The notes: generated from the letters alone by a model not told the origin. 64,000 bases of DNA from Candidatus Kapaibacterium thiocyanatum (GCA_001899175.1 MKVH01000002.1:287702-351701), one strand, 5' to 3'. Shown: positions 56,957-64,000, numbered from the stretch's first letter. A program made the numbers and translations.

Positions 56957-59656
56957 ATGAATGAATTGCTGCCCAAGACCTACACTCCGGCGGATGCCGA
57001 ACCACGCTGGTATGCGGCGTGGGAACGTGCCGGACATTTCTCATCCGCTCCTTCCGAACGCGAGCCGTATTCGATCCTGATGCCGCCTCCGAACGTGACG
57101 GGTATCCTTCACTTCGGTCATGTACTGAACCATACGCTCCAGGATATGTATATCCGCTGGAATCGTCTGCGCGGCTTCGAGACATGCTGGTTTCCCGGAC
57201 TCGATCATGCCGGTATCGCCACGCAGTCGAAGGTCGAACAGGAGCTGAAGAAGGAAGGTCTCTCCCGTTACGATCTGGGTCGCGATGCCTTCGTCGATCG
57301 CGTGTGGCAATGGAAGGAGAAGTACGGTGGCATCATCCTCCAGCAGCTGCGGACTCTCGGCAACTCGTCGGACTGGGAGCGCACGCTGTTCACGATGGAC
57401 GACAGTGCTTCCAATGCCGTACGCGACGTCTTCATCCGGTTGTTCGATGAGGGACTGATCTATCGCGGCAAGCGCATCATCAACTGGTCGCCCGTGGCAC
57501 AGAGTGCGTTGAGCGACGAGGAGGTGGTATTCAAGGAAGTCAAGGAACACATCTATACGCTGCGATACCATCTCGAGGATGGTTCGGCGACGTTGCTCGT
57601 GGCGACGGTACGCCCGGAAACGATCTTCGCCGACGTCGCCGTGGCCGTGAATCCACGCGATGAACGGTATGCCCACCTGATCGGCAAATACGTCATCGTA
57701 CCGATCGGCGGACAACGCGTTCCGATCATCGCCGACGACTATGCCGATCCGACGTTCGGTACGGGCTGCGTGAAGATCACGCCCGCCCACGATCCGAACG
57801 ACTTCGAGATAGGCGTCCGTCACGGACTGCCGATGCCGTCGTGCATCAACGCCGATGCGACCCTGAACGAGCTGGCAGGGGAGTTTGCCGGTCTCGATCG
57901 CTTCAAGGGACGACGGAAGATCGTAACGGCGCTCGAAGAACGCGAGCTCATGGAGAAGGTCGAAGACTATACGCACAATGTCGGCTTCTCCGAACGTGGT
58001 GGCGAAGTCGTCGAACCGTATCTGAGCGATCAGTGGTTCGTCAACATGAAGCCTCTGGCGGAACCCGCGCTCAAGGTCGTCCTCGACGGTGAAGTCCGGT
58101 TCTATCCGGAACATTGGGTGAAGACGTACGAGCACTGGATGACGAATATCCGCGACTGGTGCATTTCGCGTCAGCTATGGTGGGGCCATCGCATTCCCGT
58201 CTACTATTCGGAGGATGGGCGCTACACTGCCGCCCATTCGTCGGAAGAAGCATGTGGAAAACTCGGCCTGCCCGCAGGAACGCCCCTGATCCAGGATCCG
58301 GACGTACTGGACACGTGGTTCTCGTCATGGCTCTGGCCGTTGACGACGATGGGATGGCAGGGCGAAGAGAACGGCAAGGAAGGCCCCGATGCCGCACGAC
58401 TCATGGACTACTACCTGCCGACCGATCTTCTCGTGACCGGGCCGGATATCATCTTCTTCTGGGTAGCACGGATGATCATGGCCACGCTCAAGTTCCGTGG
58501 TACGGTCCCGTTCAAGGATGTCTACTTCACGAGTATCATACGAGACAGCAAAGGCCGTAAGCTTTCCAAGTCGTTGGGTAATTCACCTGATCCGCTTGAC
58601 GTGATGTCGAAGTACGGCGCGGATGCAGTAAGATTTACAATGATTTACCTTGCTCCGCTCGGACAGGATGTGCGTCTCGACGTCGACGAGAAGACGCAGG
58701 ACATCCCCTCGATGGAGATCGGCCGTAACTTCGCGAACAAGCTCTGGAACGCGGCCCGTTTTCTCCAGATGAAGAAGGTCGAGGCCGATCTGCCGGAAGG
58801 AATCGCACCGTCCTTCACGTTATCAACAGCCGACATGTGGATAACGTCGCGCTACAACTCCACTGTAGCTGCTGCAACGCAAGCCCTTGAAGATTATAAG
58901 CTAACGGAATATTCGAAGACGCTCTACGACTTTGTCTGGCGGGACTTCTGCGACTGGTACGTCGAAGTCTTCAAGGTGCAGTTCAATGCGCATCAGGATG
59001 CCGGATATCGTGCGGGATTGCTCGTCTTCGCCTTCTCCATCTTCGAAGGCGTGTTGAAGCTCCTGCATCCCGTCATGCCGTTCCTTACCGACGAACTGTG
59101 GCATGGTCTGTTCGGACACGACGACGCCCGTACGGTAGGTCTCGCAGGTGTACCGGTCGTGGATGCCGCGGCCATCGTGCCTGATACGGAAGCCCGATTC
59201 GACCTGCTGCAGACCGTCGTCGAAGCCGTTCGTCGTCAGCGTGCCGAAATGGCCATTCCGCCGAGCGAACGTCTGCCGTTGCATCTGTCGTGCGATCCGG
59301 ACCTTGCCGCCTTCCTGGAAGAGCAGCGCAACATCATCGCGACGTTCGGTCGTTGCAGCGACCTCGTCATCGGTACGAATCTGCCGAAGCCTGCGGGCAG
59401 TGTCGCCGACGTCGTCCGGGGTGTGGAAGTCTTCCTCGTTCTCGAAGGCAAGGTCGATCTCGGCAAGGAACGTCAGCGTCTGACGAAGGAACTCGAGCGA
59501 CTGCGCGGGCAGATCGCCGGAATCGAGAAGAAGCTCTCCAACCAGGGATTCCTCGCCGGTGCCAGGCCCGACGTCGTGGATGTCGAACGACGGAAGCTGT
59601 CCGACTGGACCACGACGGCAACGAAGCTTGAGCAGAACATCGCCGGCCTGGCATGA
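56957..59656 (+). CDS. valS: Valine--tRNA ligase
   Basis: HIGH ([11 protein letters not shown]), KMSKS (KLSKSLGN), C-terminal coiled-coil. 899 aa. Confidence 0.97.
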
Positions 59657-59718
59657 GGCCTGTCGGCTCATGCAGGGAATATTCATCGATCACGTACACA
59701 AGAACACGACCGCTCATT

Positions 59719-60918
59719 ATGGATAGCTACATCGTTTCTCCGCTCCGCACACCTGTCGGCAAGTTCGGCGGTGCACTGCGCACGGTTCGTCCGGACGATC
59801 TCGGGGCACTCGTCATCAAGGCCGTGGTCGACCGCACGTCGGTAGCTCTGGATGCGATCGACGACGTCATCATGGGATGCGCCAACCAGGCCGGAGAGGA
59901 CAATCGTAACGTCGCGCGGATGTCGGCACTGCTCGCAGGTCTGCCCGACACTGTACCGGGCGTCACGGTCAACAGACTCTGCGCATCGTCGCTGGAAGCC
60001 GTCATCCAGGCCTCCCGTGCCGTCCGTGCCGGTGATGCGAACGTCATCGTGGCGGGTGGACTCGAAAGCATGACGCGTGCACCATATTCGATGCCCAAGA
60101 ACGTTTCCGGTGGCGCCGTCTTCGGCAACATCACCGCCTACGATACGGCGCTCGGATGGCGCTATCCGAATCCGGCCATGGAAGCCATGTTCCCCCTCGA
60201 AGCGATGGGGGAAACGGCCGAAAACGTCGCCGAGCGATGGGACATCGGGCGCGAAGAGCAGGATGCCTTCGCCTTGCGCTCGCATCAGCGGGCCGTCGCA
60301 GCGCAGGAACGGGGACTCTACGACGACGAGATCATTCCCGTCGTTCTCCCGGTGAAGAAAGGCGATCCTGTCGTCGTCGCGAAGGATGAATGTCCGCGTC
60401 AGGATACCACGCTCGAGAAGCTGGCCGTTCTGAAGCCCGCATTCAGGAAGGGTGGAAGCGTGACGCCGGGCAATGCATCGTCGTTGAACGATGGCGCGGC
60501 CGCAATGATCATCGCCAGCGAAGCGGCGTTGGAGAAGCACGCACTTGCGCCGCTCGCACGCATCATCGGTAATGGTGCGGTAGGCGTGGATCCCCGTATC
60601 ATGGGCATCGGTCCGGTCGGTGCCATTCGCATGGCATGCGAGCGTGCCGGGATCAGGGTCGCCGATCTCGGTCTGGTCGAGATCAACGAAGCCTTCGCCG
60701 CACAGAGCATCGCCTGTATCCGTGATCTGGAACTGGACACCGATATCGTGAACGTCAACGGTGGGGCGATCGCCATCGGCCATCCGCTCGGCATGAGCGG
60801 TGGCCGGATCCTCGGACATCTCGTGCGCGAGATGCACCGACGCAATGTCCGCTACGGTGCCGCTGCCCTGTGTATCGGTGTAGGTCAGGGACTGGCCGTC
60901 GTCGTCGAAAAAGCCTGA
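59719..60918 (+). CDS. Acetyl-CoA C-acetyltransferase (thiolase II)
   Basis: Active-site Cys context [10 protein letters not shown] and C-terminal [12 protein letters not shown] / CIGVGQG motifs. Confidence 0.9.
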
Positions 60919-60995
60919 GCGACACGACGATGCACGTCTTCGTCATGATACCGGGGCCGGTCCGCAACCTCTTCGTAACCGTCAGGTGATCCGTC

Positions 60996-61871
60996 ATGTC
61001 GGCACAGGACATCGATACTCTCTGGGACTACCGGGACCCCGCAGCCTCCGAAGCACGCTTCAGGGAACGTCTCGCGGTGGCCATCGCCGAAGGTGAGCCC
61101 CAGGCTCTCCATCTCGAGGTGCGCACCCAGATCGCACGTACGATGTCGTTGCGCCGCATGTTCGACGAAGCCCATGCCGAACTCGATGCCATCGAGCCAT
61201 CCGTGATCGCGACGAACGAGCCCAGGCTTCATGTGCGGTGGGCCCTCGAAAAAGGACGTACCTGCAACTCGTCCGGACGCCGCGGCGAAGCCGTCGCTGC
61301 ATTCCTGTCGGCATATGACGTGGCCGAGCGCCACGGCCTCGACTACTATACCATCGACGCGATGCACATGCTCGGCATCGCTTCGCCTGCAGAGGAAGCG
61401 CTGGACTGGAACATGCGGGCCATCGCCATGATCGAGCGTACCGACGACGTCCGCTCGAAGGGATGGCTCGGGCCGTTGTACAACAACACGGCCTGGACCT
61501 TGTTCGATATGGGGCGATATGACGAAGCCCTGGCGCTGTTCGAAAAGGATATCGTTCTGCGCACCACGATGGGCAGGGCGGAGCAGGCACGTATCGCGCG
61601 GTATTCGAAGGGCCGCGTCCTGCGTGCGCTCGGGAGGCTGGACGAAGCGGAAGTCATCCAGAACGCCAATCTCGACGAGATTGAACGGTCGCAGGCCGCC
61701 GCCGATGGCTTCGTACATGAGGAAATGGGGGAACTCCTGCTCGCCCGTGGCGACGACGCGGGGGCACGGAAGCATCTTTCACGAGCGTTCGATCTGCTGT
61801 CGGCCGACGGATGGATTTCGGCCAACGAACCCGGCAGACTGGAACGATTACGGGTTCTCACGGGCCGTTGA
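60996..61871 (+). CDS. Tetratricopeptide-repeat protein
   Basis: 291 aa, several TPR-like helical hairpins, strong GC3 coding signature. The antisense 296-aa ORF is a shadow. Confidence 0.55.
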   Translation: MSAQDIDTLWDYRDPAASEARFRERLAVAIAEGEPQALHLEVRTQIARTMSLRRMFDEAHAELDAIEPSVIATNEPRLHVRWALEKGRTCNSSGRRGEAVAAFLSAYDVAERHGLDYYTIDAMHMLGIASPAEEALDWNMRAIAMIERTDDVRSKGWLGPLYNNTAWTLFDMGRYDEALALFEKDIVLRTTMGRAEQARIARYSKGRVLRALGRLDEAEVIQNANLDEIERSQAAADGFVHEEMGELLLARGDDAGARKHLSRAFDLLSADGWISANEPGRLERLRVLTGR

Positions 61872-61879
61872 GGGAATCG
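61679..61879 (+). repeat. Direct repeat copy 1 (3' end of TPR gene)
   Basis: ~200 bp about 90% identical to 62704..62924 (e.g. ggcttcgtacatgaggaaatgggggaactcctgctcgcccgtggcgac...ggccgttgagggaat). Confidence 0.8.
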
Positions 61880-61904
61880 TACAGGAATCCTGCCAAATGG
61901 GAAA

Positions 61905-62474
61905 TCAGCGTTCCAGTGCTCCCAGGTGACGGTACGCATTGAGCAACACTCCTGTTGGCGTGGTCCTCGTACTCACAAATTCGAGGTTGCGGGCGCCGAA
62001 ACTGTCTGAAAGAAGGCGTTTGCCTCTGCCCAGCAACACCGGATATACGATAAGGATAACCTCATCCGCCAACCCCTCGTCAAGCAGGGTGGACGTTAGC
62101 GATATACTTCCGGTAAGAACCAGATCCGGGCCATCTGTCGACTTCAGGTTGCGGAGCCCCTCCAGGATATCTCCGCCCAAGCCCTGTACCGGTCCCCATT
62201 CAAGGGTCTCTGGTCTATGAGTGACGACAAACTTCGTTGCGGCGTTCATAGCGTTGGCCATCGGGAAGTCCCCGGCACCAGGCCAGTATCCCAGGAATTC
62301 ATCGTAGGTCTTGCGCCCAAGAAGCATGTCGAAGTCCTTACCGTATGCTTCCAGAAGCATATTCATCCCTGCTGGGGTACGATAAGGTGCCGTCCATCCT
62401 CCGTAGGCGTAGTTCTTGTCATGCTCGATCACGCCGTCAAGGGAGCAATGTTCAAAGATTCTGATCTTTCTCAT
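61905..62474 (-). CDS. Dihydrofolate reductase-like protein (RibD C-terminal domain family)
   Basis: MRKIRIFEHCSLDGVIE...DFDMLLGRKTYDEF...VLTGSISLTSTLLDEGLADEVILIVYPVLLGRGKRLL. Visibly more A/T-rich than flanking DNA. Confidence 0.7.
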   Translation of the reverse strand: MRKIRIFEHCSLDGVIEHDKNYAYGGWTAPYRTPAGMNMLLEAYGKDFDMLLGRKTYDEFLGYWPGAGDFPMANAMNAATKFVVTHRPETLEWGPVQGLGGDILEGLRNLKSTDGPDLVLTGSISLTSTLLDEGLADEVILIVYPVLLGRGKRLLSDSFGARNLEFVSTRTTPTGVLLNAYRHLGALER

Positions 62475-62570
62475 GTCGTTGCTTCATTGTTTCATGATTG
62501 ATTGACCAAACGTAGCGCAGACCAGATTCGCACATGGGGTGCGATGTCGACATTTACGGGTGTCATTTAA

Positions 62571-62924
62571 CCATTTGCGTTGATATCGTGATATTGCCGG
62601 TACGGAATGCGGCAGGTACGTCATCAACTTGCATACGACCATGATCGATATCCGGGAACGACGTCAGGCGCAAGGTCGGTGGATGGCCGCTCGATGTCGA
62701 TACGGGATGTGCTCCATTGACCGGACAGAGCGGTTGCAGTCTGCCGCCGGCGGCTTCGTACACGAGGAAATGGGGGAACTCCTGCTCGCCCGTGGCGACG
62801 AAGCAGGGGCATGGCAGCATCTTTCACGAGCGTTCGATATGCTGTCGGCGGACCGGTGGGTCCCTGCCGACGAACCGGGCAGACTGGAGCGATTGCGGAT
62901 CCTCGCGGGCCGTTGAGGGAATGG
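62571..62924 (+). pseudogene. Chimeric gene remnant: internal fragment of the downstream PAS histidine-kinase gene fused in frame to a copy of the TPR gene 3' end
   Basis: 62571..62694 matches 63369..63545 with a ~50-bp internal deletion. 62704..62924 matches 61679..61879. A 95-aa ORF (62629..62916) spans the junction. Confidence 0.7.
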
Positions 62925-63081
62925 CATCGGCGTACGTAATTACCAGTATACCATGTGCTTACGGCGATCAGCAACAGGTAGAAATGCGGATTGATCCGAC
63001 CGACCGGTGGGACGTACGTTTGTAGCGTCCTTAACTCAAGTTCCGATCTGTCGGTAGCAGCAACCTCCAGATCGCCACCAC

Positions 63082-64000
63082 ATGAACATTAGACAAGTGC
63101 ACGACACCATGTCGGGAATGGGAACTGACGCCATTCTTCTTCATGGTCCATCCGGGGCGGTACTCTATGCCGGCCCGACCCTTGCCCCGTTGCTGGGCAT
63201 GGATGATGTGACGTCCGTGCACAACGTACTGGATGTCGTCCATCCCGATGAACGACGCGAGTTGAAGAATGCCTTTACACGGGGTTTGATCAGAGGAACG
63301 GCATACGGTCCCGCAAGACATCGGATACATCACAGGGATATCGGCTGGAGAGACGTAGACATCGTGACACTGCCGGTACGGAACGCGACGGGTAACGTCA
63401 TCGAACTGCATACGACCATGATCGACATCACGGAACGACGTCAGGCACAGGAACGTACGGCCGTACAGGAGAAACTCCTGCGCGAGACGAACGCTCTTGC
63501 CAAGGTCGGCGGATGGCAGCTCGACGTCGATACCGGCGCACTCTACTGGTCGGACGAGGTACGGCGCATCCATGACGTCACCGACGACTACGTACCCACG
63601 CTCGATGCAGCCATCGCCTTCTTCGGTGCGGAAGCACGGCCGGTCATCGGACAGGCCATGGAAGATGCGATGACGAAGGGCGGCAATCATGACCTGGAAT
63701 TGCCGGTCGTGACGGCGAACGGCAGGAATATCTGGGTGCGTACCCTGCTCAAGACGGAGTACGGTGCGGGCGGGCGTCCGAAACGTCTGTTCGGAGCTTA
63801 TCAGGACATCACCGAACGCAAGGAACAGGAACGACGCCTGGAATCTGCCATCGACCGGCTGACGAAGCACAACAAGCAACTGGAAGAATTCGGCGAGATC
63901 ATGTCTCACAACCTGCGTGCACCGGTCAGCAACCTCGTGATGCTGCTGCACATGCTCGATCAGGTGCGGACGGAACTGGACCGGCGGGAACTGATCGCCA
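63082..64000 (+). CDS. PAS-domain sensor histidine kinase (5' part; continues beyond window)
   Basis: Frame open from ATG 63082 to the window edge. Two PAS-like segments and an H-box EIMSHNLRAPVSNL (HisKA) near the end. Confidence 0.75.
   Translation, partial: MNIRQVHDTMSGMGTDAILLHGPSGAVLYAGPTLAPLLGMDDVTSVHNVLDVVHPDERRELKNAFTRGLIRGTAYGPARHRIHHRDIGWRDVDIVTLPVRNATGNVIELHTTMIDITERRQAQERTAVQEKLLRETNALAKVGGWQLDVDTGALYWSDEVRRIHDVTDDYVPTLDAAIAFFGAEARPVIGQAMEDAMTKGGNHDLELPVVTANGRNIWVRTLLKTEYGAGGRPKRLFGAYQDITERKEQERRLESAIDRLTKHNKQLEEFGEIMSHNLRAPVSNLVMLLHMLDQVRTELDRRELIA

Follow-up and report, generated by a model that had tools for sequence, protein, structure and literature searches.

We analysed the interval between an intact TPR-repeat gene and an intact PAS sensor histidine kinase gene near the 3' end of a 64,000-nucleotide (nt) stretch of Candidatus Kapaibacterium thiocyanatum DNA (GCA_001899175.1 MKVH01000002.1:287702-351701; hereafter the window, from whose first letter all positions are counted). 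This interval, in which a minus-strand gene of the RibD_C family is followed by fragmentary copies of both native neighbours, is very probably a scar, now in decay, that was left when the genus of 'Ca. Kapabacteria thiocyanatum' long ago acquired a gene horizontally in a single event. We regard the scar as a new case of known processes, more legible than is usual, rather than as a new kind of element, and it is mechanistically ordinary. Its value is that of an example: acquisition of single genes without a recombinase is thought to be common and is seldom caught with legible joints. Here, the record is unusually well resolved, with a foreign segment that can be bounded to within a few bases and includes its own predicted promoter region, duplicated native DNA that is still recognizable, independent deletional decay of the junk in five lineages alongside an acquired gene under selection, and a sister lineage that appears to show the reverse step, in which deletion between repeats restored a working gene that draws in part on a pseudogene copy.

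The foreign RibD_C segment

Read by open reading frame (ORF) and domain calls over 61000..64000, the plus strand carries in order the intact TPR gene, the minus-strand RibD_C gene, about 600 nt without a credible gene, and the PAS kinase from 63082. The RibD_C gene (61905..62474, minus strand, 189 aa), annotated as 'dihydrofolate reductase family' and acquired horizontally, matches PF01872 over the full length of the profile (E = 1.7e-14; 54.5 bits against a cut-off of 24.1; profile positions 2-197 of 197). Its structure matches include PDB 8jsv, a 'Dihydrofolate reductase family protein' (E = 2.6e-26), and YyaP, 2gd9 (E = 5e-13), and no NCBIfam model matches the protein. The term 'dihydrofolate reductase' is an annotation name only. 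A preliminary description of the window, made from the sequence alone, had singled out this gene as DHFR-like and visibly richer in A/T than its surroundings, and composition bears this out: its GC content is 0.547, against 0.606 for the window, and its GC content at third codon positions is 0.62, against 0.69-0.74 in the neighbouring genes and 0.51-0.55 in donor-like genes.

That description had also suspected foreign DNA, and the segment is indeed Bacteroidia-derived. The RibD_C protein is 81-86% identical to proteins of Chitinophaga, Pedobacter, Pseudoflavitalea, Paraflavitalea, and Dyadobacter, while the housekeeping protein ValRS reaches at most 74% amino acid identity to any other Kapabacteria genome (the nearest in the GTDB species set being metagenome-assembled genomes of Ca. 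Kapaibacterium/Ignavibacteria). At the nucleotide level, the RibD_C gene is 80-82% identical to contigs L096 and L097, and homology includes upstream noncoding DNA, since window positions 62574..61896 align with L096 at 79.6% identity over 680 nt, about 95 nt 5' of the ATG included. On one side, this homology stops 3 nt short of the first base of the kinase fragment described below and, on the other, a few bases beyond the stop codon. The foreign segment spans approximately 61889..62576 (minus strand, ~0.69 kb), comprising the gene, the upstream region that belongs to it, and the first few bases 3' of the stop. The identity of only 80% means that the true donor is unsampled. The L096 contig has a GC content of 0.43 and carries PorP_SprF and OmpA genes, and more generally the nearest homologues outside Kapabacteria lie in unrelated neighbourhoods of Bacteroidia type (PorP_SprF, SusD-like; contig GC 0.40-0.43). 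No RibD_C gene is present in ~20 related Kapabacteria/Ignavibacteria loci with the order ValRS-thiolase-(variable)-NuoF, and a search of plasmid and phage collections returned no phage match and, among plasmids, a single weak match of 64.5% in Paraburkholderia. The gene is also missing from the sister lineage L011, but there apparently through secondary loss. The segment itself has shrunk in the window, having lost about 72 nt beside the adjacent TPR tail relative to the ancestor; L013, L014, and L099 retain an extra ~60-70 nt between this tail and the RibD_C stop.

A candidate -7 promoter motif, TACGTTTG, lies at 62507..62514 (minus strand), 32 nt 5' of the RibD_C ATG, and fits the -7 promoter consensus of Bacteroidetes type, TAnnTTTG. 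Its counterpart reads TAAATTTG in L096, TACGTTTG in both L013 and L099, TACATTTG in L014, and TAGGTTTG in L098, so that the motif is kept in the donor-like sequence and in all Kapabacteria copies. Together, the upstream noncoding homology and the kept motif suggest that a single gene arrived bringing its own expression signals, with the motif at 62507..62514 as the putative promoter that came along with it.

Duplicated pieces of the native neighbours

The remainder of the scar consists of copies of the two flanking genes. Copy 1 of the TPR-tail repeat (61674..61888, plus strand) runs from the functional TPR tail through its stop codon into ~17 nt of what was originally the TPR-kinase spacer, and starts at GACGAG (61674..61679). 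Copy 2 (62719..62933, plus strand) is a nonfunctional duplicate, with the original spacer and the kinase directly 3' of it. The two copies align without gaps over 204 nt (61674..61877 with 62719..62922) at 85% identity, or by BLAST at 86.7% over 195 nt (E = 1e-63), and their longest exact repeat measures 38 nt, whereas 50 shuffles never gave more than 13 nt. Both had been described as ending at GGGAAT; the repeat is confirmed, but alignment with relatives carries the homology ~10 nt further, to 61888 and 62933. The second piece is a 129-nt PAS kinase pseudogene fragment (62578..62706, plus strand), which is 83-89% identical to its source at 63354..63536 and has suffered deletions of 1 nt and 53 nt. 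The larger deletion is bordered by short imperfect repeats, e.g., GCACAGG...GCCAAGG, and later small deletions of this kind look typical of slipped-strand decay. Homology of the kinase fragment may weakly continue to ~62730, overlapping the start of copy 2. Both duplications had been recognized beforehand, with coordinates that needed slight correction, the kinase source having been placed at 63369..63545.

Inside the intact kinase, the source segment as a whole (63354..63558, plus strand) terminates at GACGAG (63553..63558), the hexamer that also occurs in the TPR gene at 61674..61679. Kinase sequence from ~63536-63558 is joined head-to-tail to TPR position 61674; both fragments lie on the plus strand, between the TPR gene on one side and the kinase on the other, each of these being intact. 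GACGAG is thus present in both parents of the kinase/TPR joint; after ~15% divergence the joint now reads GACCGGACAGAG and the exact crossover is unreadable. In outline, the locus has ~0.7-0.76 kb of Bacteroidia DNA between the TPR gene and the kinase, followed by a kinase fragment of ~200 nt, a TPR-tail copy of ~215 nt, the spacer, and the kinase, i.e., three novel joints, native pieces in direct orientation, and intact parental genes.

An assembly artefact, which the preliminary description had named as a possible refutation, is itself refuted. Ten independent assemblies (JGI, ENA, and NCBI; different assemblers) cover 59001..64000, nine of them 100% identical to the window and one with a single mismatch, and the RibD_C protein is present on at least 23 contigs. 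Collapse of the repeats during assembly is ruled out because these 10 assemblies agree, the copies are ~14% different, and orthologous structures occur in diverged lineages. Logan short-read contigs of filled-type strains stop precisely where copies 1 and 2 have their longest exact stretch in common (position 1 of L103/L104; the ends of L098 and L101), so short-read assemblies tend to fragment the locus.

Age, selection, and decay

When proteins are clustered at 90% identity, just three further clusters match the TPR protein at more than 50% (93%, 89%, and 89%), and the six lineages that we compared consist of the contigs of the TPR clusters together with contigs reached via RibD_C and kinase homologues. 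In all filled lineages (L013, L014, L098, L099, and the window), the same foreign DNA is present and the kinase fragment has the same left boundary, while the junction between the kinase fragment and copy 2 shows four different deletions (window, L013/L099, L014, and L098). The longest remnant, the 129-nt kinase piece with a full copy 2, survives in the window population (with L103/L104). In L013/L099/L105, a deletion runs from the interior of the kinase piece to about position 46 of copy 2 and is accompanied by a 2-nt indel; L014 has a larger deletion and a copy 2 that is ~31% diverged and has lost its stop codon; and in L098 and L101 the kinase piece is reduced to ~36 nt. Orthologues of copy 2 are truncated or frameshifted in L013, L014, L098, and L099. 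The native fragments are evolving as junk, each lineage eroding them through small deletions of its own. In L098/L101, copies 1 and 2 are ~94% alike and have lineage-specific substitutions in common, which indicates that this lineage probably homogenized its TPR-tail copies by gene conversion. Among all members of the kinase cluster, we found no intermediate with the duplication but without RibD_C, or with RibD_C but without copy 2.

Estimates by the Nei-Gojobori method place the acquisition before the divergence of these lineages. Synonymous divergence (dS) between the window and L013 is 0.36 for RibD_C and 0.36 for the kinase, and between the window and L014 it is 0.49 and 0.41, respectively; since the insert has co-diverged with its flanks, it was in place before these lineages separated. 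In a set of 120 homologues, the five RibD_C proteins from Kapabacteria group as one clade, which supports a single acquisition, and only one insertion took place, before the sampled lineages split. The ratio of nonsynonymous to synonymous divergence (dN/dS) of RibD_C, 0.11-0.18, argues that the gene is maintained by purifying selection. Copies 1 and 2 in the window differ by a dS of 0.34, which makes the duplication approximately as old as the lineage splits.

The empty site of the sister lineage

The sister lineage L011 is ~97% identical to the window and has no insert. Three independent samples of this lineage are empty (L011, L012, and L102), with the TPR gene followed directly by the spacer and kinase; in L011, the spacer comes straight after the TPR stop. 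A relative with adjacent TPR and kinase genes and no DHFR-like gene, for which the preliminary description had proposed to look, therefore exists, but its state is apparently one of secondary loss and not the ancestral one. The window and L011 are separated by a dS of just 0.06-0.11, and differences in the kinase nest L011 among filled lineages, i.e., ((window, L011), L101), the L013 group, and L014.

The TPR tail of L011 is a mosaic of the two copies. At 34 sites, copies 1 and 2 of the window differ and L011 equals either of them. The first nine sites (to 61705) are all of copy-1 type, and of those that follow, 19 are of copy-2 type and six of copy-1 type, the best breakpoint lying at 61705/61706 (Fisher P = 9.5e-5; permutation P = 0.001). 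The six exceptions correspond to changes private to copy 2 of the window, and several states common to copy 2 and L011 are derived relative to all copy-1 sequences. Since the L011 tail is a recombinant of copies 1 and 2, the insert would have been lost through recombination between the repeats; the sister lineage thus appears to have rebuilt its TPR tail mostly from copy 2, and its empty site is probably not ancestral. Since the split from L011, the 3' part of copy 2 in the window has accumulated four nonsynonymous changes and one synonymous change, and the tail re-used by L011 one nonsynonymous and ~3 synonymous changes. This would fit the evolution of junk and of a gene, respectively, with small counts on both sides.

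Origin of the joints and alternative histories

Two steps would suffice to produce the scar. A head-to-tail duplication mediated by GACGAG microhomology, with a unit of ~1.88 kb that began in the TPR tail and reached kinase nt ~470, would have created a spare spacer and a spare kinase 5' end; double illegitimate recombination could then have allowed foreign DNA to overwrite this spare spacer and kinase nt 1-272. We infer that the joints were made by RecA-independent illegitimate recombination. As had been remarked in the preliminary description, there is no recombinase gene nearby, no gene called in the 10 kb to the left or right belonging to a recombinase family, and a repeat finder reported no inverted repeats at the segment borders. 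The intact TPR gene, the spacer with its putative promoter, and the kinase-regulator operon all survived, and the event was therefore tolerated. We favour the order of duplication followed by replacement with moderate confidence. The same order had been proposed beforehand, and it stands insofar as the parts lie in the order of a head-to-tail joint with GACGAG in both parents; however, it is indistinguishable from one-step or insertion-first routes, which fit the data equally well.

In a one-step origin, a break just 3' of the TPR stop would have been followed by a single bout of template switching akin to microhomology-mediated break-induced replication (MMBIR), which made all three joints by copying foreign DNA, switching to kinase nt ~272, and then, at GACGAG, returning to the TPR tail. 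The presence of three novel joints inside 1.05 kb at one locus with all native pieces direct, putative microhomology at the only joint for which both parents are known, and the lack of an intermediate state in about six lineages are all in keeping with such an event. However, the data give no preference for one step over two, the copying of exogenous DNA is an extrapolated mechanism without direct support here, and microhomology at the two foreign joints is not assessable because the true donor is unsampled; we consider this origin possible but doubtful. Only tentatively, and with considerable reserve, would we go as far as a single replication-restart or template-switching event with exogenous Bacteroidia DNA as template, after which the ~215-nt repeats served as a reversible excision device. 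If this were true, the locus would document how foreign DNA was captured in nature in an MMBIR-like manner, a way of transferring genes horizontally without a recombinase, and the excision device would explain the presence/absence polymorphism between sister lineages. We think it unlikely that insertion came before duplication. On that account, foreign DNA replaced the spacer and kinase nt 1-272, thereby inactivating the kinase, and wild-type DNA of a relative then made the repair by homology-facilitated illegitimate recombination, with an anchor in the 3' part of the kinase and an illegitimate joint at GACGAG; in a Campbell variant, a circular molecule of TPR tail, RibD_C, and kinase fragment integrated by a single crossover in the TPR tail. 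Both yield exactly the observed order of parts, and the mosaic of copies 1 and 2 in L011 is symmetrical, being equally expected from Campbell integration into an empty site. However, RibD_C has co-diverged with its flanks (dS 0.36-0.49, like the kinase) and the empty lineage is nested among filled ones, so any such integration would predate all sampled lineages and L011 is best read as an excision; moreover, insertion first demands that a kinase-dead intermediate persisted.

That the empty site of L011 is ancestral, the insert having spread between lineages by homologous recombination via conserved flanks, is highly improbable. Homologous flanks in all lineages make such transfer mechanically possible, and presence/absence alone costs two events either way if only four lineages are counted. 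However, divergence of the insert equals that of the flanks between lineages, each lineage has its own junction deletion, and the empty lineage is sister to the window (dS ~0.08) and nested within four filled lineages; an ancestral empty site is rejected on this dS and nesting. In addition, import by two crossovers would require both to have fallen at one repeat position, whereas a single crossover between copies 1 and 2 would explain the L011 mosaic. Several points nevertheless weigh against the history that we favour, namely old acquisition, decay, and secondary loss in the sister lineage. Of the donor, no more can be said than that it is 'Bacteroidia-like', and the events cannot be put in order by observation, no intermediate having been found. 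Substitutions have blurred the kinase/TPR joint, where the GACGAG microhomology is deduced from the two parental sequences. A few of the 'shared derived' sites of copy 2 and L011 are homoplastic in other lineages, and the nine copy-1-type sites of L011 adjoin the duplication joint, where copy 2 is most diverged, which somewhat inflates the contrast. Finally, the changes counted in copy 2 (four nonsynonymous to one synonymous) are too few to test neutral evolution.

The chimeric ORF

A 95-aa ORF with a TTG start (62629..62916, plus strand) runs across the scar and has no Pfam match. It had been described as an in-frame fusion of kinase- and TPR-derived residues. The ORF exists, but three-frame translation shows that its reading of the kinase-derived DNA shifts from frame 1 to frame 0 and back to frame 1, so that the native frame is used only for ~18 PAS residues and the TPR tail, the middle third being out-of-frame kinase sequence. 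The junction of the kinase fragment with copy 2 differs by lineage, and the ORF is therefore not conserved; it is broken or shortened in L013, L099, L014, and L098. We judge it to be a chance by-product across the scar and not a gene, its in-frame fusion being incidental. The earlier view of the region as a scar is upheld by the relatives: they share the arrangement, but various deletions interrupt the chimeric region, and none has the intact, selected gene that the preliminary description had named as a refutation.

The alternatives that the ORF is a real new gene encoding a PAS-TPR fusion mini-protein, or that the repeats are an assembly artefact, have next to no probability. The frame is open over 95 codons and gene callers annotate 69-91 aa of it, but there is no domain match, the middle third is out-of-frame kinase sequence, the ORF is lost or truncated in four other loci, and the callers are split on start and strand; an artefact is contradicted by the agreement of 10 assemblies and by the orthologous structures of diverged lineages. 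Public gene calls over the scar (62641..62916) are inconsistent: on one strand the product has 69, 77, or 91 aa, while the opposite strand is called with 85 aa. None of them has a Pfam match, and they are annotated as hypothetical proteins (L001 9559..9768; L002 9559..9834; L003 9655..9912; L005 3691..3924). The 69-91-aa hypothetical protein in public 'Ca. Kapabacteria thiocyanatum' annotations is a pseudogene-fragment artefact and should be dropped.

Comparison with known systems

Three classes of mobile element were considered and rejected. An integron gene cassette does not agree with the lack of an integrase or recombinase within 10 kb on each side, with the ~95 nt of own upstream region, or with the lack of a border inverted repeat. 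An insertion sequence (IS) element, transposon, or miniature inverted-repeat transposable element does not agree with the lack of border inverted repeats and of a nearby transposase, or with flanking duplications that are ~200-nt pieces of two genes. A prophage was rejected as well, on the gene calls and repeat search just mentioned.

Double illegitimate recombination and homology-facilitated illegitimate recombination have reportedly been observed during natural transformation of Acinetobacter baylyi. As in illegitimate integration in Acinetobacter, a short piece of unrelated DNA has been inserted without a recombinase through joints at little or no homology, and resident DNA has been replaced (here the spacer and 272 nt of the kinase copy) without transposon-type terminal repeats or a target-site duplication. 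Unlike in the laboratory selections with that organism, the scar is natural, ancient, and fixed, occurs in uncultured Kapabacteria, and is coupled to a 1.9-kb duplication joint. A related short-patch form of illegitimate recombination has been described (bioRxiv 10.1101/2023.11.22.568220).

There are also parallels between the scar and the classical systems of Salmonella and Escherichia coli, in which tandem duplications are mediated by microhomology and collapse in a RecA-dependent manner. Similarly, the head-to-tail joint of the scar would lie at the 6-nt GACGAG, leading from an internal kinase position to an upstream TPR position, and direct repeats later deleted the intervening DNA (L011) or were homogenized (L098/L101). 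The differences are that the upstream unit has mostly been replaced by foreign DNA, with ~200 and 215 nt left, and that the repeats recombined despite ~14% divergence. MMBIR is said to produce complex local rearrangements from resident templates. The scar resembles its products in being such a rearrangement, with several joints, short copies in direct orientation, and putative microhomology, but one template here would be exogenous DNA, for which we know of no precedent. Pseudogenes in bacteria are reported to decay under a deletional bias. In each lineage, 53-150 nt have been lost independently between imperfect short repeats, next to selected genes that stay intact; these losses show no substantive difference from this process and amount to a textbook-like case in five parallel lineages.

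Neighbouring genes and further observations

The intact TPR-repeat gene (60996..61871, plus strand, 291 aa) matches Pfam TPR families, and its last ~65 codons constitute copy 1 of the repeat. Its orthologues in the sister lineages are 89-93% identical at the amino acid level, with dN/dS of 0.10-0.13 against the more distant L013 and L014 and 0.31 against the close sister L011 (13 nonsynonymous and 13 synonymous changes). The intact PAS sensor histidine kinase (489 aa) occupies 63082..64000 on the plus strand and ends at 64551 in the identical contig L001, where a response regulator follows; the identical protein in NCBI is named PAS domain-containing sensor histidine kinase and assigned to 'Candidatus Kapabacteria' thiocyanatum. 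The original TPR-kinase intergenic spacer (62934..63081, plus strand), retained beside the intact kinase, is almost invariant in the window, L011, and L101 and ~90% conserved in L013 and L014, and it is probably the promoter or leader of the kinase. It holds TACGTTTG at 63015..63022, the same Bacteroidetes-type -7 motif as is found 5' of RibD_C. An Rfam scan of 61400..63400 (E <= 1) gave no match, and the conserved spacer is thus not a known RNA. A scan of 61600..63200 for sigma-70 promoters and intrinsic terminators found none, which is uninformative with regard to promoters of the Bacteroidota group because these are unlike the sigma-70 consensus. The exact spacer pattern had no match in GTDB species genomes and, in JGI metagenome contigs, recovered only the window's own population and no new lineages.

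On a larger scale, the ValRS-thiolase-NuoF-CTP transferase-permease-BioY backbone is conserved across related Kapabacteria/Ignavibacteria (window 59653..65040 compared with L016-L050). The start of the thiolase gene is ambiguous, the longest ORF from 59653 (421 aa) overlapping the ValRS stop and several pipelines calling 399-400 aa from 59719. The gap between thiolase and NuoF is variable, usually measuring ~65 nt and sometimes holding a distant kinase/regulator pair, and the arrangement of TPR, (RibD_C), kinase, and regulator occurs in this genus only; the gap looks like a recurrent insertion hotspot. In comparisons of the window population with L011, L013, and L014, mismatches rise abruptly 3' of BioY, from ~5 to 25-78 per 200 nt. 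A second variable region, with unannotated genes beside a large Por_Secre_tail protein, lies past the end of the window (L001 1..3700, ~68800..72474). In L101 (3207..3815; the fifth lineage, SRR27460524), a gene for an rve-family integrase (IS element) is found ~1.1 kb 3' of the response regulator, in the place occupied by the NuoF-like gene in other lineages.

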